Below are positions 4,120-60,392 of a stretch of 64,000 nt of DNA, one piece after another (position 1 is the stretch's first letter; each line of letters opens with the position of its first letter). This DNA is from Sphagnum compactum (Eukaryota): positions 7,874,001 through 7,938,000 of the forward strand of contig OZ234494.1 of NCBI GenBank assembly GCA_965153455.1, given 5' to 3'. Below the pieces are notes generated by a model. The model worked only from the letters and a program-made list of their open reading frames with translations, was not told the DNA's origin and searched no databases. The position numbers and the translations under genes are program-made.

Positions 4120-4610
4120 CAGTGTTTTTTTTGTTTTGTCTTTTTTTCGAATTATGGCTATTGAAAATCTCTAAAAGGCACTAATGATTTTAGTACTTTT
4201 TAATTTTAGTATATAGCATTTTGGAAAAGTAAATTTCTCTTAAACATAGATACTTCTATGTTTTTGGCGAGTCTACTTGAACCATTTATAGAAAGAAATC
4301 TGGCGATTTTACTTAATTATTTTTTCGAATTATGGCTATTGAGAATCTCTAAAAAAGCACATGATTTTAGTACTTTTTCATTTTAATATAGCACATTTTG
4401 GTAGAGTCAATTTCTTTAGACAAAAAAAATACTTCTATATTTTGGGGAGTCTACTTGAACCATGTATAGAAAGAAATCCGGCGAATTCCCTTAAATTTTT
4501 TTCCAATTATGGCTATTGAAAATCTCTAAAAGCCCTAGTAATGATTTTAGTACTGTTTTAGTTTTAATATAGCATTTTTTTGGCTATAAAGAGCCCCCAG
4601 CAGAAAAAAG
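4120..4610 (+). repeat. Short dispersed repeat element containing ~2.5-3 tandem copies of a ~180-bp unit
   Basis: AATTATGGCTATTGA(A/G)AATCTCTAAAA recurs at ~4150, ~4328 and ~4505. The same segment occurs singly at ~41015 and ~63378. Confidence 0.8.
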
Positions 4611-5021: not shown

Positions 5022-5610
5022 GCACCTTACCGCACACGGCCGGTAGGGTTTAGGGTTAGGGTTAAAGGTTCCTCCCAACAAATTCTTTCTTTGGGTATAA
5101 TAACTAAGGGGCTTTTTTAGGGTTTAGGGTTTTTCACTCGATGCATCTTACCGCATATGGCCCGTGGGGTTTAGGGTTAATGGTTCCTCCCAACAAATTC
5201 TTTCTTTGGGTAAATATATAGCTAAGGGGCTTTTTAGGGTTTAGGGTCTTTCACTCGATGCATCTTACCGCATACGGCCCATAGGGTTTAGGGTTAATGG
5301 TTCCTCACAACAAATTCTTTCTTTGGGTATAATATATAGCCAAGGGGCTTTTTAGGGTTTAGGGTCTTTCACTCGATGCATCTTATCGCATACGGCCCAT
5401 AGGGTTTAGGGTTAAAGGTTCCTCCCAACAAATTCTTTCTTTAGGTATATTAACCAAGGGGCTTTTTAGGGTTTAGGGTTTTTCACTCGATGCATCTTCC
5501 CGCATATGGCCTGTAGGGTTTAGGGTTGAAGGTTCCTCCCAACAAATTCTTTCTTTGGGTATATTAAAATTTAAGGGGGGCTTTTCAGGGTTTAGGGTTT
5601 TTCACTCTAT
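5022..5610. repeat. Minisatellite, 5 x 114-121 bp, each unit containing plant telomere-like TTTAGGG motifs
   Basis: Unit anchor CTTACCGCA or a variant at 5026, 5147, 5264, 5382, 5496; each unit has GGGTTTAGGGTT twice and GGTTCCTCCCAACAAATTCTTTCTT. Confidence 0.92.
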
Positions 5611-8600
5611 CCATGTTTGTGAGGTTTTTTATCATGTTCCTAGTTAACCTATTTTGCCCAAGCTTAGCCTATTCTAAGCTTATTGTAAACAATGTAGGGC
5701 CCAAGGGTGTTCAGCTTTATAGTGTTCTTTTTGGTGTGCTTTTTCCACTACCCAGGCCCACTTAGCTCAAGAAGAATTATTATTATTATTATTTATTATT
5801 ATTATTAGAAGTAGTTTACCTCATTATCAAATAAAGCATATGGTTGGCTAGTTTTGGGTGAAATTTTTTTTTTTTTCTCAATTGGGTGGGGTCCCGTAAA
5901 GCTCTACCATGGTGGCCTTTTGATGCAACAACATAAGCCAAGAAGAAGAAGAAGAATGTAAGGAAGGAAACTCTATTGGGAAATGAGAGTGTGAAGTTAA
6001 CACCTAACAAAGCAAATGTTGGGTGACCTAAGTTGTTGGGTGAGCTAACCATGACACAAGAACTACTACCTTAGCTCGCTCACCTACAATGAATCATCCG
6101 ACCCCCTTACTTCTCTCCCATAGTTGTTGTTGTTTGTTGTTTGGAGATGTAAAAAAAGCTCAAAGAAAATTTTCTAGTGATCCCTAGATGCCATGTTACC
6201 CTAAACCCTAAACCCTACTTGTGAAGACCTATCGAATAAATTATTGTGTAATTTGGTGGCACGATTTAAAGTGATATTTGACCTTTGAGAATCGCTAGGT
6301 CTTTCTTTTCCTTTTTTTTTTTAGAAGGGCTCATTTTGTCCCATGGAAGTATCTTCTAGGTTTTGGGAGGTATCTCCCATTTTTCCATAGAGATCTTCTT
6401 CTTCTTTGTGTGTGTGTGTTTGTCCATTCAAAGCAAAAGCTTGTCTTTCAAACTCAAAGAAATCTTTGAGATTCAATATTAAAAAATTTAATCAGTTCAA
6501 ATCTTTATAGGAAGAATTTTATTTAGTTATGGAAATTATTTTAAGAACCAAACAAAAAATGGAATTCATTCAAAAAATTTGGATCAAGATGATGAAATGT
6601 AGAAAAATAAATAAAATACATCCCAACAAAATTCAAGTTTGAATATCCCTTTGGTTGAAATGAAACAATTTGTTTTCAAACTCCAACAATTACATGTACA
6701 ATTGCATTGAAATTTGTTTTTAAATTGCATTAAAAGCTTAAAACAATCCTTATTTATTAGAATGTTGCATATTACACAAAGTAATAGCAACATCATTTTG
6801 ATCAATTATAAACAATGTGATTTTACAATTAGTTAGGTTGGAGAATTGATGGCCACTAAACATTGGTTACAATAATTTCTCATTTGTCATTTTGATCCTT
6901 CTTAACACATTAAAACCCTCAACCAAATCTCAAAACTGTAGATCATGATCCTCATGCAATATTAGTTGAAACTTAATTCTATTCAACAAACTTTGATTGC
7001 ATGTAACAAACAACCTTCAATTGATCACCATGATTATTCACCTTCTTCAAGCTAGATATCTATTTTATTTCTTGACATGATTTTCCATCGCCCATTGTCA
7101 CAAAACACAATGCCTCCAAGTTTTATTGAAAAATACATTATCAAAATCATTGCACATATATTGAAAATGGACACAATACAAAAAGCAAAATTCAAACTCA
7201 ACAATTCAAAATTTCAACAATCATAAATTTATTCAACTTTTTGAACATGTGCAATTCTTCATTGAAGGCTTATTTAAAAATAAGATGGTGGTCACCACTA
7301 ACCTCAATTGATACCATTACATAGTTCAATTTTTCATATCGTTGTTTGTTTGGTTATACCTATGATTAATAAAAACACAATGAAATTTACAAAATTTGCA
7401 AAACACAATCAATTTGTAGCCCTTGGTCTACAAAGATATTATTGCAAATAACCAAAAAACTCAAAGTTTGAATAGTTTTTCAGATTGCTATATCCCTTGA
7501 CACCATTCTAAATTCAACATGAATGAAGGCATTTAACATCCTTGTTATCACCATGCTTCAACTAGTTTTGTAGGTGACATACTTTCATTTGAATTCCATG
7601 GATCTTTTATGAATCGCATGTTCAACAATCTCAATGTATATTTCCCTCACAAAATGTATTTTTTGAAATGCAATGTCAGAGCCAACATGACAAGCAATTG
7701 GCACCCCCAAGTCAAGCTCATTGGCAAAGGGCCAAATGAACTTCATTTGCATGCCACTAGATTTGAACCCATGTCTTTTTAAGTCCCAAGGTTCTATAAT
7801 GAATTATACCATTGAGCCCCCACAAGAGTTTTATTAAACCAAACATGTTATTCCAATCGCAATGACTTAATGTTGAAAACAAGGGATGCATCCCAATTTT
7901 TGAAACAATGATCACTATTGCCTCATCAAAGCCTTGTATGTCTTTACAACATCCAACATGTAACAATTGACAAAAGGATGATGATCCTCCATTCATGTAA
8001 AACTTCCAATTCTTGAAAAATCCTTATTGATAATTACAATGAAAAACCTTCAACAAAATTAAATAACAACAACAACAAATGATCACCAAAAAAATCTTTA
8101 AAAGAAAAAAGCAAGGTTCAACAAAAGAACCCAAAAAACTCAACAATAGTAAAGGATTTAGAATATAAAATACTAACTTCAAGACACATCAAATTCATCT
8201 TTATGGATTGTAAAGCCACATGCATTTAATGTCAAAAATTCTTTAAAACCACATACAACAAAATTACATGTATTAAAATAACAAAAATAAAAAACAACAC
8301 CAAAATTTTGGAAAGGTGGTTTGGCATTTTTCCCAACTCAACATTACACAATGTTAATATGTTTGATTTCTTTATATGTACTATATAGATTATCCTCCCC
8401 GAAGCTTTGAAGGACATAAGAATAACTTACATATAACAAAACATATTTAACATTGAATATATTTTTCAAATTTAACGATCCATAAATGAAAAAAAAAAAA
8501 GCAAATGTGTGAAAGCAATATATAATAGACATCAAAGCCTTAATATGTAACAAAATTCATTTTGTTAAAGAAAAACAATTCACACATTCACTATCAACTC

Positions 8601-24242: not shown

Positions 24243-26073
24243 TTTCCCAACTATTTATCGCGGGGCTGAATAGTCAATGATTAACAATTAAAACGTTGTA
24301 TTACAGATGTTATATTTATGAATGAAAATTTGGATTTTGATCACACTTCCATGGGGCATGCATTTGGGGGAGTTGTTGCATAATGGATGAATAGTTGGAA
24401 AAGTGAATTTCACTTCCTTTTAGAAAGTGTTTTGAGAAGTTGCACAACAAATGAAAATGAGCTTCCCAAAGGAAAATGGACGGTGCATGAACTTTAGGAA
24501 GCCATGAAGTTGCCTCCAGCCCAAGAGGAGGCGAACAAAGGGATATAGAAAGATGGCCCAAGTATTGTAGGGACATCGAATGATAAATGAACTTGGGGAA
24601 GGCATCCCATCTTCAAATGGAAGTGGATGAGATAGTACATCCTATTGTCCAATTTTGGATGTTTGATGTTCCAAATTTGGTCTATTGTCCTACTTTCTCA
24701 ACTAGCTCCGTTTTCATCCCTTATTGAACTTTGTAAAAGTTTGACAATGTTTTCACAAATTGGCATTTGAAGGAGAAAATAGATAAGTAATAAATATACA
24801 TACATTTTACCACCAAACACATGGCATTTATTTCATTGAAAAAAAGCATCTAATTTTTTGTCAGGCATACTTTTAAAAACTTTTTATCATGAAATTGGGT
24901 ATTTTCAAATGAATTGTGGAAGGCTTTTTTTTTGGTTGTTGTTGGGCACTTGTCCTATAGGCTATGTAACACCATTGTTACATCCTAGTGCCACATTCCT
25001 TGCACCTATTTTTAATGCTCCCTAAGAGGACCTAGTTCTAGGAAAGAAAAATTCTCAAAGTTGCTTGCTAGCTACTGATTCACTCAGCATAGAATTCCAT
25101 TTATAACTGACAATTGGCAGTTGTTGTAAAGAACCTTTGTAGTTTTCCAAATTTTTTTTATAAATTTAAAATATTAATATTTAATATTTAATATTTAATA
25201 ATATTAAAATATTTATTATTATTATTAGTTATTGGGTCTTACAGTCCCAATCTGAATATTTCAAACAATTGGCAGTCAAAATAGGTAAGTATAAAAGGTC
25301 TCCTTTATTTTTTGAATTAACCCAATGGAAATGATTGTGCCATGTACTTCAAAAGTGTAAAGCTTCAGTTCTTTGGAAAGTCTTGTAAGGTGAGGTTTGA
25401 ATTCTTTATATTTTTTCCAACATGCCCTCTTGAGAATGATCATAGCAGCTTTTCAGGTTCAGCCATGATTAGATTATTTAATAAAAATTCTGAAATTAAA
25501 AAAAAATTATTATTTGTTTGAAAATGTCAAATTCTAAGGAAATTAGAAAGGGAGTCTTTTTTGAAAATTTTGGTGGAAAACCACCCAGGAGCTTCTTGCT
25601 TTAGGCCAATCTGCCATTGCAAAGCAAGTATCCAAGAATTGACGAGATTTTTCTCTATCCCATAATATGGTGAAGCATTATGTATCCCCAATTTTGCAAA
25701 AAGAAGTAATAAGAAATGTTGCAAAAAGTCTCAATATGTTAGAGGTTCCGAGTCAAGAAACCAACCAAAGAAACTACCTTTATTTATTTCTGAAAATTCA
25801 CTTTTTTTTTTTAATGGGGGGGGGTGTCAAAGTGGATTTTCAAAAAATATATATTCATCACCGAAGTGACAAACTTGAAAAAGTATTATGATATTTAGCA
25901 TTTAACTTTTATTTTTTCACAAGAATTAATAACATTGAAAATGGGTGGCATGTACAGGATTTAAGCATTTTGACAATGTGACATGTGACATGGAAGTCTC
26001 CAAGTGTTTAGGCAATATTGTAAATAATACAAATTTGAAAACCCAATATGATATATTAGAGAAATTGGTAAAT

Positions 26074-26416
26074 TCACCCTGTCCTCACTCTCTCTTTGGG
26101 CCTCATTTCACCCCCAAACCCCTCTTTCAGTGGTATCTGCAAAGTAAGGAAATTTTATTAAATCTGGGTATGAAATGCTGAAACTCAGCATTTAATGCAC
26201 AAGGTTCGATAGTAATCATCGTTATATGTTTTCGGGTTCGACACAGTAGTGCTAAATAAGTAAATATAATTTGGAGTTTCTGTTTCGGCATCACAGTTTT
26301 TGATTTTGAAATTTTCGACAAAACTAAAAATAATATAAAATTAGTGCCAAAGCTGAAAAGGTACTACCGTATAGTAGCTGCACAGGTAGGAGCAGTGAGA
26401 ATATATGTAGCAGCAG
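26074..26416 (+). repeat. 5' part of an unclassified dispersed repeat (copy A), interrupted by the MULE at 26417 and resuming at 38046
   Basis: 26074-26202 is a close reverse complement of 43307-43428. 26372-26416 joined to 38055-38310 aligns with the reverse complement of ~43035-43290. Confidence 0.75.
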
Positions 26417-27059
26417 GGCTTGAGTGAGCCAGCACCCACCAGTGTACCATCCAAAAAATCCCGTTCTGGGATGAAACTGTCCCCTAGGGGTCAGTTTACT
26501 TGGTCAGTAGATATTTCTTTCTTCTGCTCCTTTTTATCCCAGTTATATTTTTTTCCATAGCCCAGTTTTTTTTCTTTCTGGCAACAATTTTATTATCACT
26601 TTTTTTTGGCCCACCCCTGACCCCAAGTTTTTTTTTGGGAAGCTCCTACCTACCTTCCAAACCTATACCCTAAACCCTAAACCCCAACCCACCTACCCCC
26701 TTCTTCCTACCAACCCACCTACCTCCCTCATCCTGCTGGCCCCCTCCCCACCCACCTCCTCTTGCGCTCACTAATCATCGCCAGAGCTTCAGGAGTGGTG
26801 CTCGTCATCAGGAGCTTCAATGTAGTGGTAGTTGGAGCGTGAAAGCAAGAGGAGTTGGGAGCTTCAGGGTTGCTGCTCATCGTTAGGAGCTTCAATGTGG
26901 TGGCAGCAGGAGCGTGAAAGCAAGAGGAGCTAAAGTGGGAGCTTGAAGGCAAGTTCCCTTCTCCTTTTTTTTTTCTTTTTTTTCCTCCTTTGCTGTGAAG
27001 AAGGCGACGCCATTGTCGATGCCGTCATCATCCTCTTCTCTTCCTTTGCAACTGCTCAA

Positions 27060-28170
27060 AATGATGACAAATAGCTACGTTGCTCGTTGTTGTTTTGATA
27101 TGGGTTGCAGGCAGGAAAAAACGACGACGAGCAATGTAGCTACTTGTTGTCGTTCTCCTAAGGGATACAAGCAGGCAAAAATGATGAAAAGTAACTATGC
27201 TACTCATCGTTGTTCTACTATGGGTTGTAGGCATGAAAAAATGACGACGACGAATAGCGTACCTGCTTGTCGTCATTCTCCTATCGTTAGCAAAAGAATG
27301 ATGATAAGCAGCCATGCTGTTCATCATCATTTTGTTTTTTTTTCAGCCATGAACAAGGATGATGAGTGTAAGATTGTCATCCTCTTCAAATTTCGAAGCA
27401 AGTGCAAGTAATGACGACAAGCATCACTGTTGTTCGTCATCATTCTAGTTGTTTTCCAAGAGGAAGAATGACGATGAACAATCGCACGCTACTCGTCGTC
27501 ATCCTTTTTTTTGTTTTTTTAACAACTGCGAAGGAGGATGATGAGCATAGCTCGTCATCCTCTTGAAGCTCTGAAGCAAGTGTAAGTAACGACAACGAGT
27601 AGCAACGCTCATCATCTTCTTCAAGTTTGGAGGCTTGCGTAAGTAACGACAATGAGCAATGCAGCTACTTGTCATCGTTCTAGTTTGTTTTTTTTAAAAA
27701 GAATGATGATGAACAACCGCGCTGCTATCATCATTTTTTTTTGGAGTTGTGAAACAGGACAATGAACACAGCTTGTCGTCCTCTTCAAGTTCCAAGGTAG
27801 GCACCCAGTAATGACGACGAACAACACGGCTGCTCATCATCGTTTTAATTCTATTTTTTTAAAATGACAACAATTAGTCATGCTATTCATTGTCACTTTT
27901 CTTTTTGCAGTTGTGAAAGAAGATGATGAGCTGTGCTCGTCATCCTCTTCAAGTTTTAGGGTAGGCGCTCGGTAACGACGAGGAGCAGCAGTGTCATCCT
28001 TCTAGTTATTTTCCAAGAGCGAAAGGACAACAACAAACAGCATAGTTGTTTGATGTCATCCTTTTTTTATAGTTGTGAAGGACGACAACGAGTAGTGCGG
28101 CTACTCGTCGTCATCCTTTGTTTTTATTTTGCACTTGTGAAGGAAGATGACAATGCAATTCATCATCTTC
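27060..28170. repeat. Degenerate array of ~60-bp palindromic units (GACGACGAG...CTCGTCGTC) inside the MULE
   Basis: Examples: ACGACGACGAGCAATGTAGCTACTTGTTGTCGT (27121) and GACGACAACGAGTAGTGCGGCTACTCGTCGTCATC (28081); well over a dozen variants. Confidence 0.7.
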
Positions 28171-28401
28171 TTCACAGCTGAAGAGGAAGTGCCAGATCAC
28201 AATCATAAAAACATGGGCGCTTGTCTCGCATCGAATGATGAACGTTCATCATCATCAAATTTTTTTAGTTGCTACCTATAAGCTCCTTCTGGTTGTCTCT
28301 GCTTTGCATTCGCACAGTTGGTGAAAGAATGGAAAATGCTAAGAACTAAAATAATGTTATGTTGTTTATGTTTTTGTTAAATGCAAACTTGAAAGAAAGT
28401 A

Positions 28402-30079
28402 ATGAATGTTGGAACATATCAACAAGTTTCAGCAAACATTGTAGATGGCATGGGAGGTGTCATGAATGACAAACATTTGGAGGCTAGGGTGATGGGACAG
28501 CAAGCGAATGTTGAGAATGTGGTTCCATTGGTTGGAAGTGAAATTGCTGAAGAAGAAGAAGTGCAAGTGGGTGAAGATGTTGGGGAAACATCTAATGGAG
28601 ATGATGATCAAGTTGAGATGGATTTGGGAAGAACTACTTAATGATAAAGGACCAAGAAAATGTGGTTCTTGCTCCTCCAATGCTGAAGTAAGAGAATGCA
28701 AATGAGGATGTTGATGCACATATTGATAGAGGTGACATAACCATTGAACTTCACGTATTATTATTATTACCCCACCCATCCTTTCAAGTGGAGAGGATGG
28801 GTGGGGTTTTCTTTTTGTCAAATTCGTGATTGCAATACCTTCTTAAATTGTGGTCCTTAAACCTTTACATGCCCCACCTTCCTTTTCCATGTCAGAAGGT
28901 GGGTGGGGCTTTTCTTTTTAGTGCAACTCTAAAGGCAATACTTTTAGGCTTTGTATGTGATATTGTTATTTTTAGGGTTTGCTTCATTTTATGCAAATTT
29001 CAATATTGGAATTTAGCAATATTCTCATTCAGTGTTTTATTTTATTTTCTTTCTATGCAATACCCTAATCTTGTGTTATAATCTTGCATTTATTTATGCA
29101 ATACCTTCATTGTTTAGGGGATAACCTTCATCTAGAATATTAAGTCTCACATTAAGTTTTTTTTTTTTTTTGATTTCAAATGTGGTTGCCCGCCCCCCCC
29201 CCCCCCCCCCTAAGTTGCCATAGAAGGTGTCCATTGGGCAAGGGGTGGGCCCAAATTTACTTGTAGGGTTGATGGGTGCAATGCATCCTATACGGCCAAG
29301 TATAACTTGGTGTGACATTTGTGGGCATGTCACAATGTTACCATGGAACTGAGCAAGCGCGGACACCCATCTACTCGGGAACAGGGCCTGAGGGTTCAAG
29401 ACCACACGGCAATGGATGCACAAGTCTTAAATAACCTTTTGGCACAATTTTGTTGCAATGAATAAAAGGGTATTGTTAGGGCTAAGAAGCACGCATTCTT
29501 GGAGTGGGATAGGTTCTAGGTTGATTTGTAATACACACCTAAATTGCCTAAGCCCACATTTGTGAGGCTAGCTTTTAGCCACATTCTCCGGCTTTTTGGC
29601 ATATTACATGGGGTGTGGGGGCCATGCCTCTCAATGTGCATGCCATGTTAAAGCATGATGAGGACCTTGCACTTGTGATTCAAACGATTCGAGTTGGGTA
29701 TGCAAAGGCATTCAAAGACGCTTGGATGGAACACGACTGGAAGTTTACATCAAATAAGATAGTGCGGCATAAGGATATTGGCCTTCTTAAGCAATACCAT
29801 GATTCAGAAATGATTCATGGTCAGTATGTTTCCAATAATGCCATACTAAATTTTATTTGAATTCTAGGTTTTAGAATTCATATGCAATACTTATTATGTA
29901 TTGTTTGTTTTAGGGTTCGAGGCACCACTAAGGAGGTGTTTGTGGTTGATGTTATGGACGCAACATCAACTAATCACAAGGTTTTTACGCGACGACATGC
30001 CCATAATGCAAAGTTCACATTAGCGCAATACATGAAGGCCAATGGGATCCCATCCCCTTCCAGTAGTTACACAGATTAA
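28402..30079 (+). pseudogene. Decayed multi-exon C2H2 zinc-finger gene inside the MULE (core 29214-30079; probable acidic upstream exon 28402-~28686)
   Basis: Frame from 29214: VAIEGVHWARGGPKFTCRVDGCNASYTAKYNLV*HLWACHNVTMELSKRGHPSTREQG... = C-x4-C-x12-H-x4-H (29262-29333). After several stops and a frameshift it continues into ORF 29615-29860, then a GTATGT..TTTAG intron (~29825-29913) to ...VRGTTKEVFVVD...SSSYTD*. Linkage of the acidic exon is inferred. Confidence 0.7.
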
Positions 30080-30419
30080 GGAATCCCATAATATATCCCA
30101 CTTTTGATTAGGGTGTTGTTTTGATCTTTAGGATTTAGGGTAGCAATTTATTGTTGAAGCAACCACATGTTCCCTGTTTTAGGCTGGGGTTCTTTTGGAC
30201 TTGAGCATTTCTTGCACATTTTTGTAACACATGTAACCCATGTTTTTTATTTAAAGCATTTTACTTTCATTTTGCACCATCTTGTGTTAATGGTTAAAAA
30301 TACATAATTCACATATTTTTATATGTTTGATTGATAAATTTATCAAAACAATGATTCTAATCTTGCACTCCAACCACAAAATCTTTATTTACCCCCAAAA
30401 ATTAGATGTTCAAACCTAA

Positions 30420-30970
30420 AAAGGAAAGTGATACCCTCATGTGGGTATTCTGTAAACACCATGGATTGAATTATTTTGGTCAAGGTTATTAGAGGGGTAT
30501 TGCTTTTGCCCATAATTACTCAATGCAAATGCAATACCCCTATAGGGGTATATTATAACTCCTTCGAGGTCCATAACATATTAAAAAAGTCCTAAAGAGG
30601 TATTGCATAGCCTTAACAAAACTTAGAAGAAACGCATTGCCCCCATGAGGGTACTTTATAAACACCATGGATTGAATTATTTTGGTCAAGGCTATTGGAG
30701 GGGTATTGATTATGCCCAAAATTACTCAATGCAAATACACCCTCATAAGGGTATTAAAAATCCTAAACCTACAGGGAAAATATTCTATAAACACCATGGA
30801 TTGAATTATTTTAGTCCATGCTATTGAATGGGTATTGTTTGTGCCCATAATTACTTGATGGGTGTGCAATACTTTGCTTATGTCAAAAATCTTTTGGGCT
30901 TCATCACATATCTTTTGAAACCCATAGGGGTATTGCTTAAACCTGCAAGGAAAATAATACCCTATTTGGG
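30420..30970 (+). repeat. Internal MULE tandem array (GGGTATTG-rich), ~3 units
   Basis: AAACACCATGGATTGAATTATTTT at ~30455, 30661 and 30790; reverse-complement related to the array at 35980-37290. Confidence 0.8.
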
Positions 30971-31602
30971 GTAATCAATGTGGCTAGTTTTGTAATATCT
31001 TCATTCCAATACATTGGTCCATTAGTGAATTATTGTCATTTATGATGTTGAAAACGAATTTAAACTATAATTTTTAATAAAAATATTAACAAGTTAAAAC
31101 AATTAAGCAAATATTTTATCTCTACAAATGCAAAATAAAATAAATTCATATATTAATTAATTAATTATTTTACTTAAAATATTTTCAAAATTAAAAATTG
31201 ATAGATTATGCACCATTTATATTTTTTGAATCATAAACAACCATTCATTTATTCAAATAAACTTCACATGTGTTTTAGGTTTAATAAAAGATGAAGAAAA
31301 AAATATTTTAATATATTTTAATACAAAAGGGAATACAAATTGAAGTGTGACAATTAATGATCATGGGCGCCATTATTTGATATGTTATTCCCTAAATTTC
31401 AATTTACATATAATAAACATGAGATTACATGCATTAATTAAATATACATCATTAATAAGTTTTTTTTGGATAGGTTGAATACCCCAAATAATGTTGAAAG
31501 ATATGTGATTGACCAAAAAACATATACCGGACAATGGTATTGCAATTTAATTTCACCCTTTTGGCCATGAGCAATACCCTTTGGAAGTTTAAGCAAAAAA
31601 TA

Positions 31603-32202
31603 CTAAGTGTGAGTCCAATGGTAAAAAGTAATTTCTGCCACATCTGGCCATGTGTAAAGCCATTTGATGGAAAAGTGGGCCAAACAACCACACTTGATTG
31701 ACCTCATGTGGTTGGGGTCTTTGCGGTGGTCTTTTGGCCCATAACCACATTCATACCTACAAAACATAGTTTACATTCAATCAAATCAAAAGACACAAAA
31801 GTGATTAACCCTAAAACTTCCAAAAATGACCAATGGAAAGGGTTTATAGGTTTTGAAAACATACCAAGTATGTCCAAGTTGATTCTTTATTGTTGGTTTT
31901 TTTACATCATGGTGAGGGGACAAATTCTTGGAGATGTTCCACTTAATCGCAATTTGCATATCCCTTCGTTCACCCTACAAAAACTTAGAAACACGAGCAT
32001 TGGGGGATGTATGCGTTTTCAATTGCCACCTTGTTTTGGCCTGCATGCCTAAACCGATCTTTCCACGCCAAGTCCACATTCGAAAAAGGTAACTTTGCCA
32101 AGTTTTAGATTTTGATGGATTGGGACAATAGAGTTCGACCCATGTTTTCAATTGCTGAAGGAATAACCATGTAATAGGAATCCCCAACTTATGAAAACTC
32201 AT
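31603..32202 (-). pseudogene. Truncated MULE/SWIM-family transposase, N-terminal DNA-binding region only (2 exons)
   Basis: Exon ~32202-31865: VGDSYYMVIPSAIENMGRTLLSQSIKI*NLAKLPFSNVDLAWKDRF...AYIPQ/(fs)RVSKFL*GERRD...KPTIKNQLGHTW. Intron GTATGT..TTTGTAG (31864-31757). Exon 31756-31603: YECGYGPKDHRKDPNHMRSIKCGCLAHFSIKWLYTWPDVAEITFYHWTHT*. From recall this matches the YxCxxGPxD...RGCxxHF...HxxH pattern of plant MULE-derived SWIM proteins (AT4G13970/AT1G60560 type); no DDE domain is visible. Confidence 0.75.
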
Positions 32203-32894
32203 GGAACACCCTCACAAGTTTACAAATTGTAATAACCCTAATCAATAAAACCCTTAAACCTTACAAGTGAATCTTACCACAACCCATCAACAAACAATAG
32301 TTTACAAATGGAAAAAAAAATCACGCGACTATCTTATGGTTATTTAAACTTACGCAAAAAAAACAAAGTGCTATCCTCCTGGAGATAATCAATTGAATAT
32401 ATGTAGGGCTTTCAATCTAGATGTGCAATACCCACATGCAAATGATATTTCCATGACCATCCATATACAAGGGGGAACAAAACACCCCAGTAAAATAAAA
32501 AACAAAAAAATCACTAATTAAACCCTAATTTGAAAAAACTAAATGAAAAGTAAAATGAATAGAAAACATGATGTGTTTCTTACCTCTTGTTTTGGTCTTG
32601 CTTATGAGCCTTTCTCCATTCTCTTTGAGAGAAAAAAAAAATGTATTGTGGCATATATGTGCAAATGCAAAATCCCCCCCCTCCACCCAAATCCATATTA
32701 GGTTTAATTTTAATTAGGTTTAAAAGGTGCAAAAAGTCATAAATATTTGTTATTTCCATAACCCAAAATTCTAAAACCTTAGTGCTAACATAAATAATTG
32801 TTAAATCTAATCCACATTGCTTAAGTACATCATTAAAACAAACAAATCAAATTGTTTTATCTAGGCCCTATTGTTTGATCTAGGCCTCCCATGT

Positions 32895-33450
32895 GTACAA
32901 CATGCATTAAATGTGTTGGCTTTGCAATACCCCCCCCCCCCCCCCCCCCCATCGTGAAAAACACTCTTGACATAGAACTTGTAGTACCCTAATTGGGGGG
33001 GTTTCACATACTCCAGATTTTCAAAAGATTCTGCAATACCCTCACAACACGTAAAAACTACATGTTTACAACTAATGCCTATTTGTTATACCCTTACATA
33101 GGGGGATGATAATTACTTTAATCTTGCCCTTATTAATTTTGCTCAATGAACAAGACCAAGTTCCATGCAATATCTTCACTTTATTCTTTCCTGATCGTTT
33201 TCGACCCTTGGGGGGTTTATTGCAATGGCAACCATGTAGGTAGGTGTAGCCATGTAGGTGGGGTTTGGTAGGTACCTACTTATAGTGTTGATAGGTAGGT
33301 TAGTGGTAAAGCGAATAGGTGGGTGGGGATGAGTTAAACACATCTTAAATTTATAGGTGAGTAGGTCGATGGGGGATAGTGGGGGGTAGTAGGTAGGTGG
33401 GTGGGAAAAGTTTCCCAAAAAAAAAAAAAACTAGGTGGGGGGCAAGGCTG
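32895..33450. repeat. Internal duplicate of the MULE right subterminal region (second copy 37318-37810)
   Basis: Shared blocks include TACAACATGCATTA, AAAACACTCTT..AGAACTTG, TTCACTTTATTCTTTCCT and GGCAACCATGTAGGTAGGTGTAGCCATGTAGGTGGG. Confidence 0.85.
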
Positions 33451-35979
33451 GGCTCCATAACATATCTTTTGGAATTTGGAAAGGTATTGCATTACCCACA
33501 TCATTTTGCAATAATATCATAAACCGTGAAAGAAAAGATTTTTTAAAAAGATATTGATTCCATGCTCATTACATCATGCTAGACACAATGATTCAAGTAA
33601 ATGAGGCAACATCCTCTCCCTCATGGTGGAGTGATTGGAAACATGGGATTTCCTTCATCTTTTAAACAACATCTTCCATCCTCATGGTGGATTGATTCAT
33701 TTGAAAACTAACCCAAGGGACAAGATTGAATGTTCAAAATTTGCAAGGAAAGTAGTGTATAACAACTTTGAGAGAAAAAAGAACTCACAACTATGGAGCA
33801 TTACCTCTTGAACTTTCTAGAGTTTGCACGGACTTTCACTTGCACTTGCAGGACCTTTTGACTCTCGCCCACACAACAAGGACCTTGGACCCTCGTGCGG
33901 ACTTTTGCTCCCACTCATGGGACCTTGGACTCCTGCTTGCACTTTCAAGACCTTTTGTCTCTTGCGCGAACTTTTGCCCCACTCTTGAGACCCTCAACTC
34001 CCGTAATTTGATATTATCTTGATTTTGAGTTAGTTGATTAGGCAAATGATTTTCAAAGCTTTGGAAATTGCTTATCGTTTCACTCTACATGTTTAAAGTT
34101 TTAGTTTTCATGAGTTCATTACATATCTATAGGTACTCAATGAAAGCCACAACAAAAAGATTCAAAGAAAATTACAAAATCTAACCCAAATTTGGGTTTT
34201 CAAAAACTTTAAATTGGTATTACACATTCAATGTTACACACACTAACCATGGCATTGCTAATGCCTTCAATGGGTTGATGATTTTTAATAAAGTTCATGT
34301 AATGTAATATCCACCTTTGATGTAGGGGATGCATGAAAATGGAGACAAAATTGTGACTACGAAATTATTTTGGGCTAGACTTTTTGTAAGTTGATAGTAT
34401 ATTAATTTATAATCATCATAAATAGTGGATCATGTTGCATCCATTACAAGGTGATTACATACCATAGCCCAACTAATGAACTCAATTGCTACTTTCAAAG
34501 CATTTGAAGCACAAATTTGAAACAACCGTAATTTGAAAAAAATTAAAGGTTCTAGAAACATCATATGAAAAATGCACCTCTAAAGAAAACCCCACCTTTG
34601 CCCCACCTTCCTCCTCCATCAAATGTTTAATTAAAAATTCTACCAAATTAAAATAATTTATGCAAACATTATATCTCTAGAACTGCAAAAATATATAATT
34701 TCACACATTATTAAACTCAATATATCATCATTTAGTACATTGTAAACTAAAATTTACATAGAATTAAATTACAAGGACTAAATTTACATAATACTAGTAA
34801 CTAATATTTCAAACTTCAATTAAAATATTTCAACCTACATAGAGATAATATTCAATTACATAAATTAATAAAATATACAATGTTAATAACTTATCTTCTG
34901 GAATTTTTAATTCTCATTAAAAATAAATTTTACAAAAAAATTGCACTATACAGAACCATGGGTTTACATATATTATTTAAATTTAATATATATTTTCCAA
35001 TAAATTCTTATCTTATTTTAAATAAATATGAAGACATTTATATATATTAAAAAGAAAAAATATATAATTCCATAGTATCATCAATTATATATAATTTACT
35101 ACTCAATATGTTATAGATAAAAATATATTTAAACCAATATTTAAGCCAATATTATACATCATTAAAAACAAATTACATAAGAACTTGTGTTATATCTTTA
35201 TAAAATATAAAATATTACCAACCTACTATTTAATTATTTTAAGTTATAAATTATTATTACATGTCAAAAAACATTTAAGTAAAATTTCAATCATACATAG
35301 GATTAATTTATGCGAGAGACCATTAAAAAAATTAGAAAATCATGTGTTTTAATTAAATTTTAATGCTTTCATGCATTAAAATATTACAAAATTAGAGACT
35401 TTATGTTTTTATTTTTAAAAATGAGTTTATAACTTAAAAAGGGAAAAACATAAATATGTACATCATTGAAAAAATGTTAAGCCTGAATTTTTTATTTTTT
35501 TATTTTGACAAACTTTGAATTCTAACATTAATTAGTAAATTTTACATTAAACCCTAAACCCTTGTACCATCAATGTGACCAATTTTCCATTACGTTCATT
35601 TTTATATATGTTAAATCATATTGTAAAGTGAATAAATAATTTTGAAAACATGGATTTCATGATATATTTGTAGGGAATCGAGTATTTTAAAAAATATTCT
35701 TATGTTTCATGGTGAATACAAATATCCCATGATGATGCAAGTATTGCATTTAAATTTCATAACTTTGTTCAAATGACCTTTTACCATCAATGTGAAATTT
35801 TTTGCAATACCTTTATTTACTTGAATCAATATGTAGGGCATGTTATATTGAACATGGAATAAATATTTTGAAAAATATCCTTTTGTTTCATGGTTTAAGA
35901 TATTATTGCAATATGATGCAAGTACTACTTTCCTTCTAGGTTTTGGTATGACTATGCAAAACCCCTCCAAGTTTGAAAA

Positions 35980-37290
35980 GATATGTTACGGAGCCCACTG
36001 TATTTTTGGGACAACTTATAAAGGGTATTGCAGGTGTAGTGTGTAATTTTAAAGCATGAGCAATATCCCTCCAGTAGTGTAGACCCATGGGGTTTAATTA
36101 TTGAATACCTTAATGATGGTATTGTTTTCCTTGGAGGTTTTGGTAAGGCTACACAATACCCCTCTGCATGTCAAAAGATATGTTATGGAACCCAATGTAT
36201 TTAGCCCATGGTTTTTACTGAATACCCTAAGTAGGGTATTGCTTTGTTCGTAGGTTTTGGTAGGCCTATGCAATACCTTTGCACATTTCAAGTTATGGAG
36301 CCCAATGTATTTTTGGGATAACCTAAAGGTATTACATGTGTATTGTGTAGTTTTGAAGATGAACATTACCCTTCCAATAATGTAGACCCATGGTGTTTGA
36401 TTATTGAATACCCTAATGAGGGTATTAATTTCCTTGTAGGTTTTTGTAGGGTTATGCATTACCCCTCCGCATGTCAAAATATATGTCATGGAAACATATG
36501 TATTTCTAGGATACCTTGAGAGGGGTAGTGCACGAACAATACCCATCTAATAGCCTAGACCAAAATAATTTAGCCCATGGCTTTTATAGTGTAGCCCAAT
36601 GAGGGTAATGCATCCCTTCTAGGTTTTGGTAGGGCTATGCAATACTCCTCTAATCTTTAAAAAAAATGTTATGGAGCCCTATTTATTTCCAGGATACCTT
36701 GCATGGGGTATTGCAAGTGTATGGAGTAGTTTGCACATGAGCAATACCCCTTTAAAAGTGACATAACCCCTTGGTGTTTAATTACATAATACCCTAATGA
36801 GGTTATTGGTTTCCTTGTAGGGCTATGTAATACCCCTCCACGTGTCAAAATATATGTTATGGAGCCCAATGTATTTTTGGAATCCTCAAGAAGGGTATTG
36901 CCAATGTATTGAGTAGTTTTGGGCATGAGCAATACCCTTTTGATAGCCTAGACCAAAATAATTTAGCCCATGGTGTTTACAATGTAATGCAATGAGAATA
37001 TTGAAATCGTTTTAGGTTTTGGTAGGGTTATGCATTACCCCGTGATGTGTCAAAAGATATGTTATGGAGCTTAATGTATTTCTGGGATACCTTGAGAGGG
37101 GTATTGTCATGTGGCCCAATGAGGGTATTGCAAGTGTAACCCAATGAAGGTATTATAATTTAGCTCAATGAAGGTATTGCATTCCTTCTAGGTTTTGGTA
37201 GGGCTATGCAATACTCCTTGACTTGTGAAAGGATATGATATGGAGCCCAAACTATTGTTGGGGTACATAGAATGGGGGATTGCACGTTCA
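35980..37290 (-). repeat. Internal MULE tandem array of ~190-bp degenerate units rich in GGGTATTG/CAATACCC
   Basis: ATATGTTATGGAGCCC-like anchors at ~35981, 36178, 36481, 36666, 36852, 37058, 37234. Confidence 0.85.
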
Positions 37291-38939
37291 TTGAGTATGT
37301 TGTTTTATGAACCTGAGTACAACATGCATTAGATGCATCTAAATTGAACTAAAATTCCATATTGCTTTGATTATCCACTTGGTTTGCAATACCCCCATGG
37401 AAAACACTCTTTGAGCAGAACTTGCAATACCCTTATATAGGGGGTATTAAATACTTTAGTCGTCCCCTTATTTATTTTGTTTGAATGAACAAGAGCAAGC
37501 TTCATGCAATACCTTCATTTTATTCTTTCCTCATTGTTGTTGATCGTTAGGGGGTCTATTGTAGTGGCAACCATGTAGGTAGGTGTAGCCATGTAGGTGG
37601 GGTTTGGTAGGTAGGTTGGTGCCAGGGCGGGTAGGTGGGCGGGGATGAGAGTAACACATTTTTAACTTATAGGTGAGTAGGTAGATGGGGAAGAGTCTAG
37701 TTTTAATTTCAATATATAGGTGAGTAGGTCGGTGGGGGACAGTGGGGTAGGTGGGTGGGTGGGAAAAGTTTCAAAAGCAAAAAAGAAAGAAAAAAGGGTG
37801 AGGGGCAGGCGGGGAGAAAATAAAGTTCCCAAAAAAAAAACAGAGATCAGGGGAAAAAAAAAACCTGGGAAAGGGGGTTTAGGGAGAAAATAAAGTTGCA
37901 AAAAAAAAAAACTAAGATCAGGGCTGAAAAAGGGCAAACAAAAAGAGTCAAGCTGCGATGGCGCAGGGATAGAAAAGAGAATCCTAGGAGTGCACCATCC
38001 ATCCATCCACGTTGGTGCACTGGTGGGTGCTGCTTCACTCTGGCCTAGCAGCAACAATGGAGGCGCTCAGGAAAAAAGAAGACAGGATGAGACTCAGGGT
38101 ACCTACCGCCAACCTACCACCAAAATTGATGGTTTTCTCAGTTTAACCCCATGTTTGCATGCTAATGTACTTGTTTGCATGTGTTTTTTGAATCTCACCA
38201 CCCCCCCCTTCTTTATGCCTTTTAGAAACATGGTCACATAGTTCCAACTCAAAGGAACTTGGTGTTGTCAGTGGAAGGACAGAAACTACCTTAGTACCTT
38301 GGGCAGCTTCAACATTAATCATAGTGTTTGCCAAAAAAAAGTGGAAAATTCTCAAAAAAAAACATTTTTTTTCCAAATTGGAATGTTTATAAAGGGTAAA
38401 TTTTTTTCAAAATGAAAAATTCCAAAATTAATTAATTAATGAATTAATTATTTGACAGACATGTGTTGAAGCTGCACCTGTACTAGAGTACTATAGGTAT
38501 GTATGCCTAATAATTTCCTTGAATCTTAGTGAAGACAAAAACCGAGATGCCTCCCAGTTTGAGTGAGTGAATGGAGGACAGACAAATGGGACCCAAGGGA
38601 CTCAATGCTATTAAAACCCTAGCATTCCATATGTTTGTTTTGTTGTGAACTTTGCAGAGGGAGGGGGGGGAGAGGCCCAACTTCCAAGAGAGACCAAAAG
38701 TGTAGAAGTTTTCTCATGTGGGTATTTTTTGAACTTTGTGCAAAAAAAGTGTCGGAAACAAATCGAAATAATAGCAACAATAGCTGGCCTGACTTCTCAA
38801 GCTAGGATCCTCTTTTCCTATGGCATACATAGGGCTTTTTAGGTACCTTGTGTTGTATCCATGATTGACCTAGTTGACTAGAGTGTACTATTTGACTGGC
38901 ATTTCATTGTTAAAGGAGGAGAGAGAGAGAGAGAGAGAC

Positions 38940-39303
38940 ACCCCTATGGAACCACGTAGTTTTTTCATTTGGTCCCACAATTTGAGGACCCTTCCATGGT
39001 TTTGGCCTTGTTACCCCTATGGAACCACGTAGTTTTTTCATTTGGTCCCACAATTTGAGGACCCTTCCATGGTTTTGGCCTTTTTACCCCTATGGAAGAA
39101 CCATGTAGTTTTTAATATAGTCCACAATTTGAGGACCCTTCCACAGTTTTGGCCGTGTTACCCCTATGGAACCATGTAGTTTTTTCATTTGGTCCCACAA
39201 TTTGACGATCGTTCCATAGTTTTGGCCTTGTTACCCCTATGGAACCATGTAGTTTTTCATTTGGTCCCATAATTTGAGGACCCTTCCATGGTTTTGGCCT
39301 CAT
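38940..39303. repeat. Minisatellite, 5 x 73-74 bp, high identity, preceded by (GA)n
   Basis: CCCCTATGGAA at 38941, 39014, 39087, 39161, 39234; unit ...TTTGGTCCCACAATTTGAGGACCCTTCCATGGTTTTGGCC. Confidence 0.95.
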
Positions 39304-59954: not shown

Positions 59955-60392
59955 CAGTACTCCGTATGTGACCCTGCAAAAATATATCTCACCTTCAAGT
60001 CTGCAAAAATATATCTCACCTTCAAGTTTAGTTTGTGAAAGTGGGACTGCAAATAGCTGGGAGACTACTAATAGCAAACCACCTAGACCAATCATTGTGA
60101 TTGGCCAATTGGAAACAGCGAGCAGCAATGGGATCATTTTTATTAGAGTCTTCTCTCAAAGGTGAAGACATACTGCAAATAGCTGGGAGACTCCTAATAG
60201 CAAACTACCTGGACCAATCATTATGATTGCCAATTGGAAACAGGGAGCAGCAATTAGATCATTTTTTATTAAGCTCTTCTCTCAAAGGTGAAAACATATT
60301 GGGCAGGCAAAAACCGTCTTGCAGAGCCAAACCAGCGTGATTTGACTTTTCTTCATCCAATTTTAATGTGCGGAGTCACATAGTGAACACTA
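59955..60392. mobile_element. MITE-like element (~440 bp) with imperfect TIRs and internal tandem duplications
   Basis: Left CAGTACTCCGTATGTGACCCTGCA vs right revcomp TAGTGTTCACTATGTGACTCCGCA. Internal 27-bp (59974-60027) and ~125-bp (60046-60298) duplications; a second partial copy at 47451. No TSD recognised. Confidence 0.55.

Follow-up and report, generated by a model that had tools for sequence, protein, structure and literature searches.

Anatomy of the element

The 64,000-nucleotide stretch of Sphagnum compactum DNA analyzed here (the window; C2:7874001-7938000 in a genome of 382 Mb) carries a Mutator-like element (MULE) of ~11.6 kb at 26417-38045. The element contains the remnants of two convergent genes, one for a protein with a C2H2 zinc finger (ZF) and one for a MULE transposase. 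A first-pass annotation had described this gene pair, ~33-bp terminal inverted repeats (TIRs) starting with G and a 9-bp target-site duplication (TSD), and all of these were confirmed. Both TIRs open with G and match each other at 28/33 bases, and the TSDs match at 8/9 positions, consistent with the G-starting TIRs and 8-11-bp TSDs of MULEs. The gene coordinates had to be revised. The ZF gene is now modeled as three exons (28381-28731, 29180-29823 and 29914-30079), and the transposase ATG that is homologous to that of an intact copy lies at 32143 instead of 32202. The features are as follows, with family A denoting the group to which the window copy belongs.

26408-26416, + strand: left TSD, 9 bp, 8/9 identical to 38046-38054
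26417-26449, + strand: left TIR, 33 bp; the same ends occur in the fetched family-A copies
26450-28380, + strand: left arm of degenerate ~55-60-bp repeats, without GGTATTGC
28381-28731, + strand: ZF gene exon 1 (putative boundaries), acidic, repeat-like, 5 stops in this copy
28732-29179, + strand: ZF intron 1, 4 GTATTGC copies, acceptor decayed in the window copy
29180-29823, + strand: ZF gene exon 2, 4 stops and a frameshift near 29606-29621
29914-30079, + strand: ZF gene exon 3, with the stop codon at 30077-30079
30080-31602, no strand: intergenic spacer with a motif array at ~30411-30975, 7 GTATTGC copies
31602-31610, no strand: deletion breakpoint, 3.4-4.0 kb lost, seen as an alignment gap against siblings C6, C13, C2b and C18
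31603-32143, - strand: MULE transposase stump, located by tblastn with an intact sister transposase
33380-37425, no strand: extra right-arm segment of a subfamily, common to C13 and C2b
38013-38045, - strand: right TIR, 33 bp
38046-38054, + strand: right TSD

Exon 1 was delimited from the open frame in an alignment of 30 family loci, the translation of the window copy and counts of splice donors. Given the stops in exons 1 and 2, the frameshift and the deletion in the transposase gene, the earlier view that this copy is dead stands. It has lost part of its interior and belongs to a MULE lineage of mosses (Sphagnum-type) that is old.

The transposase stump consists of exon 1 (~32143-31865), an intron and the start of exon 2 (31756-31603), and it aligns to residues 1-153 of the intact sister transposase, a DDE/SWIM-type protein of 789 amino acids encoded by four exons. 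Comparison with the four siblings shows that the deletion near 31602 removed the catalytic and SWIM parts. Because the window stump has no catalytic domain, the assignment to MULEs rests on sibling copies. Two of five family-A sibling proteins match PF10551 (33.2 and 29.1 bits, cut-off 27.6), and the intron-cut exon of the intact copy scores just below the cut-off (26.9 bits). The moss transposase retains D293, D359/360, E482 and CxxH, so that relatives encode a DDE transposase with the C/D-x2-H signature in the region that the window copy has lost. This transposase is 42% identical to a Ceratodon protein.

The extra right-arm segment is bounded by a duplication (33082-33441 / 37422-37805) and repeats the spacer array in inverted orientation at ~35700-37300, with 16 GTATTGC copies in 35700-37520. 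A repeat search of the window found array units of ~185-205 bp at 35.9-37.3 kb; the arrays are degenerate, and Tandem Repeats Finder (TRF) picked up just short parts of them. Within this segment, ~800 bp (33793-34596) are present in the window copy and in sibling C2b but not in C13, possibly as an old insertion. An Rfam scan of 26000-38500 gave no matches.

The ZF gene and the transposase gene travel together

In DNA searches, 40 matches were scored with the ZF region and 40 with the transposase stump; apart from the window copy, the ZF region had 39 matches, at 74-82%. Nine loci where both regions match were fetched, a sample chosen for co-occurrence, and they have the same layout as the window element. 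Protein searches of the same genome, which scored 150 of 423-650 candidates, revealed further families besides A: the young family B, families C and D, and fragments of a family E. The intact copies that had been sought exist among the younger family-B elements. An apparently recent copy of 14.56 kb (G000:C14:3478511-3493070) has 37-bp TIRs, a 9/9 TSD and both genes whole; a second stop-free copy lies on C17. In total, 2/10 family-B stretches are stop-free in both genes at the aligned positions. The TSD agrees at 8/9 positions or better at the called ends of 11/14 fetched elements with both ends.

A ZF match lies within 13 kb of at least 58 of the 156 listed transposase matches, where 2.3 would be expected, and at least 61 of the 214 listed ZF matches have a transposase nearby. 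Among the 58 linked pairs, 53 are convergent, 3 tandem and 2 divergent. The convergent layout proposed earlier thus describes most of these pairs; it is not universal, because family D looks tandem. In two family-D loci the ZF gene and the transposase gene stand in tandem with the same motif between them (L191 1733-6769, C15; L192 1781-8141, C3), and a further tandem pair occurs at G000:C11:4955747/4968209. The first-pass annotation had allowed that the ZF sequence might be a single-copy host gene or part of a separate nested transposable element. Instead, it is multicopy, and it sits beside the transposase gene inside the same TIRs.

The phylogenetic trees of the ZF protein and the transposase alike separate families (A,D) from (B,C), with supports of 92/91 and 100/99, respectively. 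The transposase is the more conserved of the two proteins. Among the family-B subfamilies (L141-L160) the relation is uneven at the nucleotide level: synonymous divergence (dS) is 0.27-0.32 for the ZF gene and 0.04 for the transposase gene, and the ZF module is ~14% diverged compared to ~4% for the transposase module. This asymmetry suggests that modules were exchanged between B subfamilies by recombination. The B5 transposase row contains an insertion, is misaligned and has 23 stops; its pairwise value was ignored, and the row is still included in the three-row B3 consensus. Subfamily B1 carries ~470 bp of telomere-like repeats between the two genes (L141:7403-7875).

The accessory gene is selected, and expressed in relatives

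The ZF gene encodes a protein of ~320 amino acids from three exons (320 in the intact family-B copy). An acidic, repeat-like exon 1 is followed by a single C2H2 finger, a basic linker containing GRP, a long basic helix and further helices. In the window copy, exon 2 holds the finger (29256-29333), the linker, the basic helix and the helical domain, and the finger follows the pattern C-x4-C-x12-H-x3-H/H. The four ligand columns are occupied across the 30 loci by C (19/30), C (30/30), H (29/30) and a last H (28/30). The Pfam model zf-C2H2 matched 4/11 family-A members (best E-value 1.3e-4); the first member reached 12.8 bits against a cut-off of 25.2, and the family-B finger gave no Pfam match. 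The finger is also similar to TFIIIA (E-value 7.5e-5), and a predicted model folds it into two strands and a helix followed by a ~44-residue helix. Pattern and fold are those of a classical C2H2 zinc finger. The finger and the basic segments are conserved across families, and the ZF proteins of the four families are 33-47% identical.

Beyond the finger, no Pfam family was found in the intact exons or in the annotated Sphagnum protein P0358. Fold searches with the exon-2 model matched no PDB fold: none of 95 Foldseek rows reached E ≤ 0.001, and VIA-align returned generic helical hairpins with a best Z of 6.4. When 1.84 billion representatives were searched with a profile, 453 matched, the 150 best of which are short and unnamed. 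Named homologues among the matches listed (best 120 of 323) come from Sphagnum balticum and S. jensenii only, and no named host-gene family appears among the homologues listed. Exon 2 retrieved unnamed clusters only from the ESM Atlas (0.88-0.90). In these searches, the helical domain matches no described family. Residues 15-226 of P0358, which follow the finger, retrieved unnamed Basidiomycota clusters at 0.92-0.93 in the ESM Atlas; a distant fungal relative is possible, as a lead only. The basic helix was also considered as bZIP-like, but its N...R spacing does not fit and the NFIL3 match in the fold search is generic, so this reading was dropped.

Among the 30 family-A loci, the ratio of nonsynonymous to synonymous variants (N/S) depends on how widely a variant is shared. 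Singletons that are not of the deamination type show an N/S of 1.02, which is neutral decay after insertion. Variants common to 2-3 copies have an N/S of 0.45 (p=5e-4), and those common to at least 4 copies an N/S of 0.42 (p=0.02). Between three B subfamilies, the dN/dS of the ZF gene is 0.24-0.28 (bootstrap limits 0.15-0.44, upper limits of the confidence intervals 0.38-0.44); the closest family-B copy pairs give values near or above 1. The ZF gene is under purifying selection, and the neutral evolution that had been considered as a third possibility does not fit the shared variants of family A or the values from family B.

RNA reads that derive from related elements, not from the window copy, show that the ZF gene of these relatives is transcribed and spliced. 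The reads of one stranded polyA run fall on the ZF exons, on one strand, and there is no depth over most of intron 1 or just beyond the 3' end. Contigs from 3/4 runs contain the GT..AG joint of intron 2 (sister family; three studies, one run guessed to be RNA), and the annotated Sphagnum proteins P0358 and P0413 have the same exon 2-3 junction. By eye, a contig of run X11 joins an upstream stretch (L141:4119-4149) to ~4621, which suggests an intron in the 5' untranslated region of the ZF gene.

These results support the earlier proposal that this MULE lineage has two genes, the second being a C2H2 accessory gene that is co-inherited and under selection. The ZF gene is a true accessory gene, part of the element and selected; the feature is real and well supported.

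A shared motif in the noncoding DNA

The first-pass annotation had also pointed to arrays rich in copies of GGGTATTG. Many copies are indeed present, but the conserved core of the motif is GGTATTGCA, which recurs in families A-D, rather than GGGTATTG. In the window, 23/25 copies of GGGTATTG lie in the element, with 2 in the other 52 kb; for GTATTGC, the count is 34/34. The element contains GGTATTGC 27 times where Markov models of the element predict 0.4-1.1. Genome-wide, AGGTATTGCA occurs 4131 times compared to 784 times for a control word of the same dinucleotide content, and of the first 100 listed motif sites, 53 have a listed match to the ZF gene or the transposase within ~10 kb (hand count).

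Motif density is 0.65-1.65 per kb across families. The sites lie in the ZF introns, in the spacer and upstream of the transposase gene. No copy was found in the TIRs, in the left 1964 bp, in the last 525 bp or in the coding DNA of the intact family-B copy; exons 2 and 3 of the window ZF gene have one GTATTGC each. Pairwise blastn between families returned 3-6 matches, and since almost all of these are coding, the noncoding DNA must have turned over while the motif persisted. Upstream of the core, families (A,D) have a different flank from (B,C). On this sequence evidence, the internal motif looks selected.

Two kinds of derivative elements bear on its role. Miniature inverted-repeat transposable elements (MITEs) of 359-388 bp with family-A-type ends (L198-L201, G000:C1) form a large family (at least 40 near-full copies scored; 2527 first-look candidates). 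The motif occurs in 0/4 of them, so that it is not needed in cis for jumping, although those MITEs could be mobilized by another family with the same ends. Second, a listed ZF match without a listed transposase match occurs in 11/26 family-B TIR pairs, which are 7-9.5 kb long, and both genes occur in 5/26. One ZF-only element (L197, G000:C4:335401-344230) is 8.8 kb long with matching 9-bp flanks, and has open exons 2-3 and a wholly deleted transposase gene. This form arises by deletion between internal repeats that flank the transposase gene. The core shared by four families, the motif-free MITEs, the ZF-only elements and the dS asymmetry are additions of the present analysis.

Proposed function of the ZF protein

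The layout of two genes plus motif suggests that the element regulates itself. We propose, with a probability of about 0.5, that the motif is a binding site of the ZF protein and that this protein keeps the genes of the element expressed. The protein would be a sequence-specific DNA-binding self-regulator that recognizes clustered GGTATTGCA words in the introns, the spacer and the upstream regions of the two genes. As an activator or anti-silencer, it would sustain transcription of both genes in methylated chromatin, and it would act in trans on every family that has the word. The transposase would act on the TIRs, with the internal words dispensable in cis for jumping. The placement of the motif in introns and upstream of the transposase gene parallels the sites of VANC21, the accessory protein of an Arabidopsis MULE (PMC5735166).

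Tentatively, these elements may represent a second, independent anti-silencing system in mosses. A C2H2/helical protein unrelated to VANC would bind GGTATTGCA clusters and unsilence or demethylate the whole MULE lineage at once, as a shared key where VANDAL families have private ones. ZF-only elements would supply this protein in trans, and ZF modules would be swapped between subfamilies.

Several observations weigh against self-regulation by the ZF protein. One zinc finger alone reads just 3-4 bp. The recognition helix varies between families (N at +3 and R at +6 in family A; L at +3 and Q/K at +6 in family B) while the motif core is constant, and the exon-2 fold model is weak (predicted local distance difference test, pLDDT, 62; predicted template modeling score, pTM, 0.31). 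Young B copies show decay of the methylation type (CG 2.1%, CHG 3.0%, CHH 0.54%; A/T transitions 0.05%), and this decay is not lower near motifs (CG 14/480 within 100 bp compared to 18/985 beyond 300 bp). The mutation spectrum is a weak proxy for anti-silencing, since both models predict methylation of silent copies. Among the listed transposase matches, 98/156 have no listed ZF match nearby, where misses are not absences. In the ZF tree, the support for the split is unstarred and family A is unresolved. Finally, in an expression analysis that had no silent control stretch, the polyA run lacks the intron-2 joint and two runs show depth in intron 1.

The motif could also recruit a host transcription or chromatin factor, with the ZF protein otherwise employed, most likely as a MURB-like integration helper acting via the transposase. 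A core that stays constant while the fingers of the four families diverge is what a fixed host binder would leave, and integration apparently requires mudrB according to one description (PMC6446971). Even the control word is found 784 times, and many listed motif sites are isolated. Against a host factor, the motif clusters at this lineage, as the hand count indicates, and both the core flanks and the helix residue at +2 (Y/W) differ between (A,D) and (B,C). This covariation may reflect shared ancestry among just four related families. On balance we consider a host factor possible but rather unlikely.

It is improbable that the transposase, with the ZF protein as a cofactor, is what recognizes the internal motif and activates the element in the way that the AtMu1 transposase does at its TIRs. 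The AtMu1c transposase alone binds and hypomethylates its cognate termini (bioRxiv 10.64898/2026.08.24.746577), and the transposase is the more conserved moss protein, matching a conserved core. However, the peaks in that preprint are at TIRs, and in the moss elements the TIRs, the outer arms and the MITEs with these ends are free of the motif.

An equally slim chance applies to a ZF protein that binds the motif but represses the element as a self-limiting control of copy number. The anatomy is silent on the sign of regulation, and elements with an open ZF gene and no transposase are common (the 11/26 family-B TIR pairs counted among listed matches, one of them verified). The ZF-only form is, however, accounted for by internal-repeat deletion, and the known plant analogues VANC and TnpA mainly activate. 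That the ZF gene evolves neutrally, as a host gene fragment captured by a Pack-MULE or as part of a separate nested element, is very improbable and largely refuted by an N/S below 1 for shared variants and by co-inheritance. MULEs do often take up host DNA (PMC6446971), and with 150 of 423-650 own-genome candidates scored there may be a host paralogue. Against capture, the ZF gene is selected, spliced and linked to the transposase gene, it recurs in multiple copies inside the same TIRs across several families, and its listed homologues include no named host-gene family.

Comparison with known systems

By analogy, the layout would seem to work most like that of VANDAL/VANC. VANDAL21 (Hiun) in Arabidopsis is a MULE with an accessory gene, VANC21 (PMC5735166). 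It shares with the moss element a dense short motif in noncoding tandem repeats, in accessory introns and upstream of the transposase gene, as well as an accessory protein that varies more than the transposase does and contains a variable, repeat-like region (PMC5735166). In contrast, the moss protein has a C2H2 finger, and its element has clear TIRs and two genes. The moss motif core is common to families A-D, whereas VANC motifs vary by VANDAL family (PMC5735166, PMC10398659). Pfam searches at E ≤ 1 found neither DUF1985 nor DUF287 in 11 family-A members, the intact exons or P0358. Lacking VANC domains and a family-specific motif, the moss lineage is not a member of VANDAL/VANC. The VANC parallel drawn in the first-pass annotation therefore holds for the layout and fails for the motif, whose core is common to four families with ZF proteins as divergent as given above. 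For VANC, hypomethylation and binding are known; for the moss ZF protein, they are a proposed role. The motif core and the VANC21 motif YAGTATTAY (PMC5735166) have GTATT in common, probably by chance.

Maize MuDR likewise has two genes, the convergent mudrA and mudrB, inside its TIRs and makes a 9-bp TSD. As in MuDR-type elements, the second moss gene is co-inherited and selected. The moss TIRs are 33-37 bp long compared to hundreds of base pairs in MuDR, and family D appears tandem.

The statement that no C2H2 accessory gene had been described in MULEs was too strong. Spectre (aphid) has a C2H2 open reading frame (ORF) beside the transposase, and C2H2 is listed for the two-ORF group of Mutyl (Yarrowia) (PMC6446971). 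Both resemble the moss element in a second ORF with a C2H2 finger or DNA-binding role, and Mutyl also in its short TIRs (PMC6446971, PMC5014426). Text and table of PMC6446971 conflict on ORF number (Spectre) and orientation (Mutyl). These precedents are thin: they come from other kingdoms, the likeness is by description, and the available excerpts report no motif arrays.

TnpA of CACTA/Spm elements is another transposon-encoded sequence-specific regulator (bioRxiv 10.64898/2026.08.24.746577), a role that the moss ZF protein may share. TnpA is derived from a transposase and acts at termini, whereas the moss motif avoids the ends. In hhalign, the ZF protein showed no similarity to the two transposase parts compared, exon 2 and exon 4 (probability 0.1%; shallow profiles).

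The moss transposase is 30-38% identical over exon 2 (E-values down to 3e-48) to a seed-plant family of SWIM-type MULE-derived proteins, including a Vitis protein at 34%. In Arabidopsis, we take this family to be AT4G13970/AT1G60560. Two of the seed-plant proteins were inspected and lack the first catalytic Asp, whereas the moss transposase keeps it in elements bounded by TIRs and TSDs. The moss transposase (L142:995-1819, - strand) is the mobile counterpart of this conserved family.

A literature search, outside which most subscription papers lay, found no description of this moss lineage. Accessory proteins that regulate their own transposon in a sequence-specific manner are known from few systems (VANC, TnpA). 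Because the moss lineage combines an unrelated protein family, a defined candidate motif and intact, apparently recent copies in the same genome, it would make it possible to test directly whether bryophytes evolved such systems independently. If the ZF protein does demethylate its targets, it could serve as a programmable anti-silencing tool.

Outside the element, the window contains unrelated tandem arrays at 38940-39300, 4141-4574, 5051-5614 and 60046-60298, with periods of 73, 177, 118 and 126 bp, respectively.

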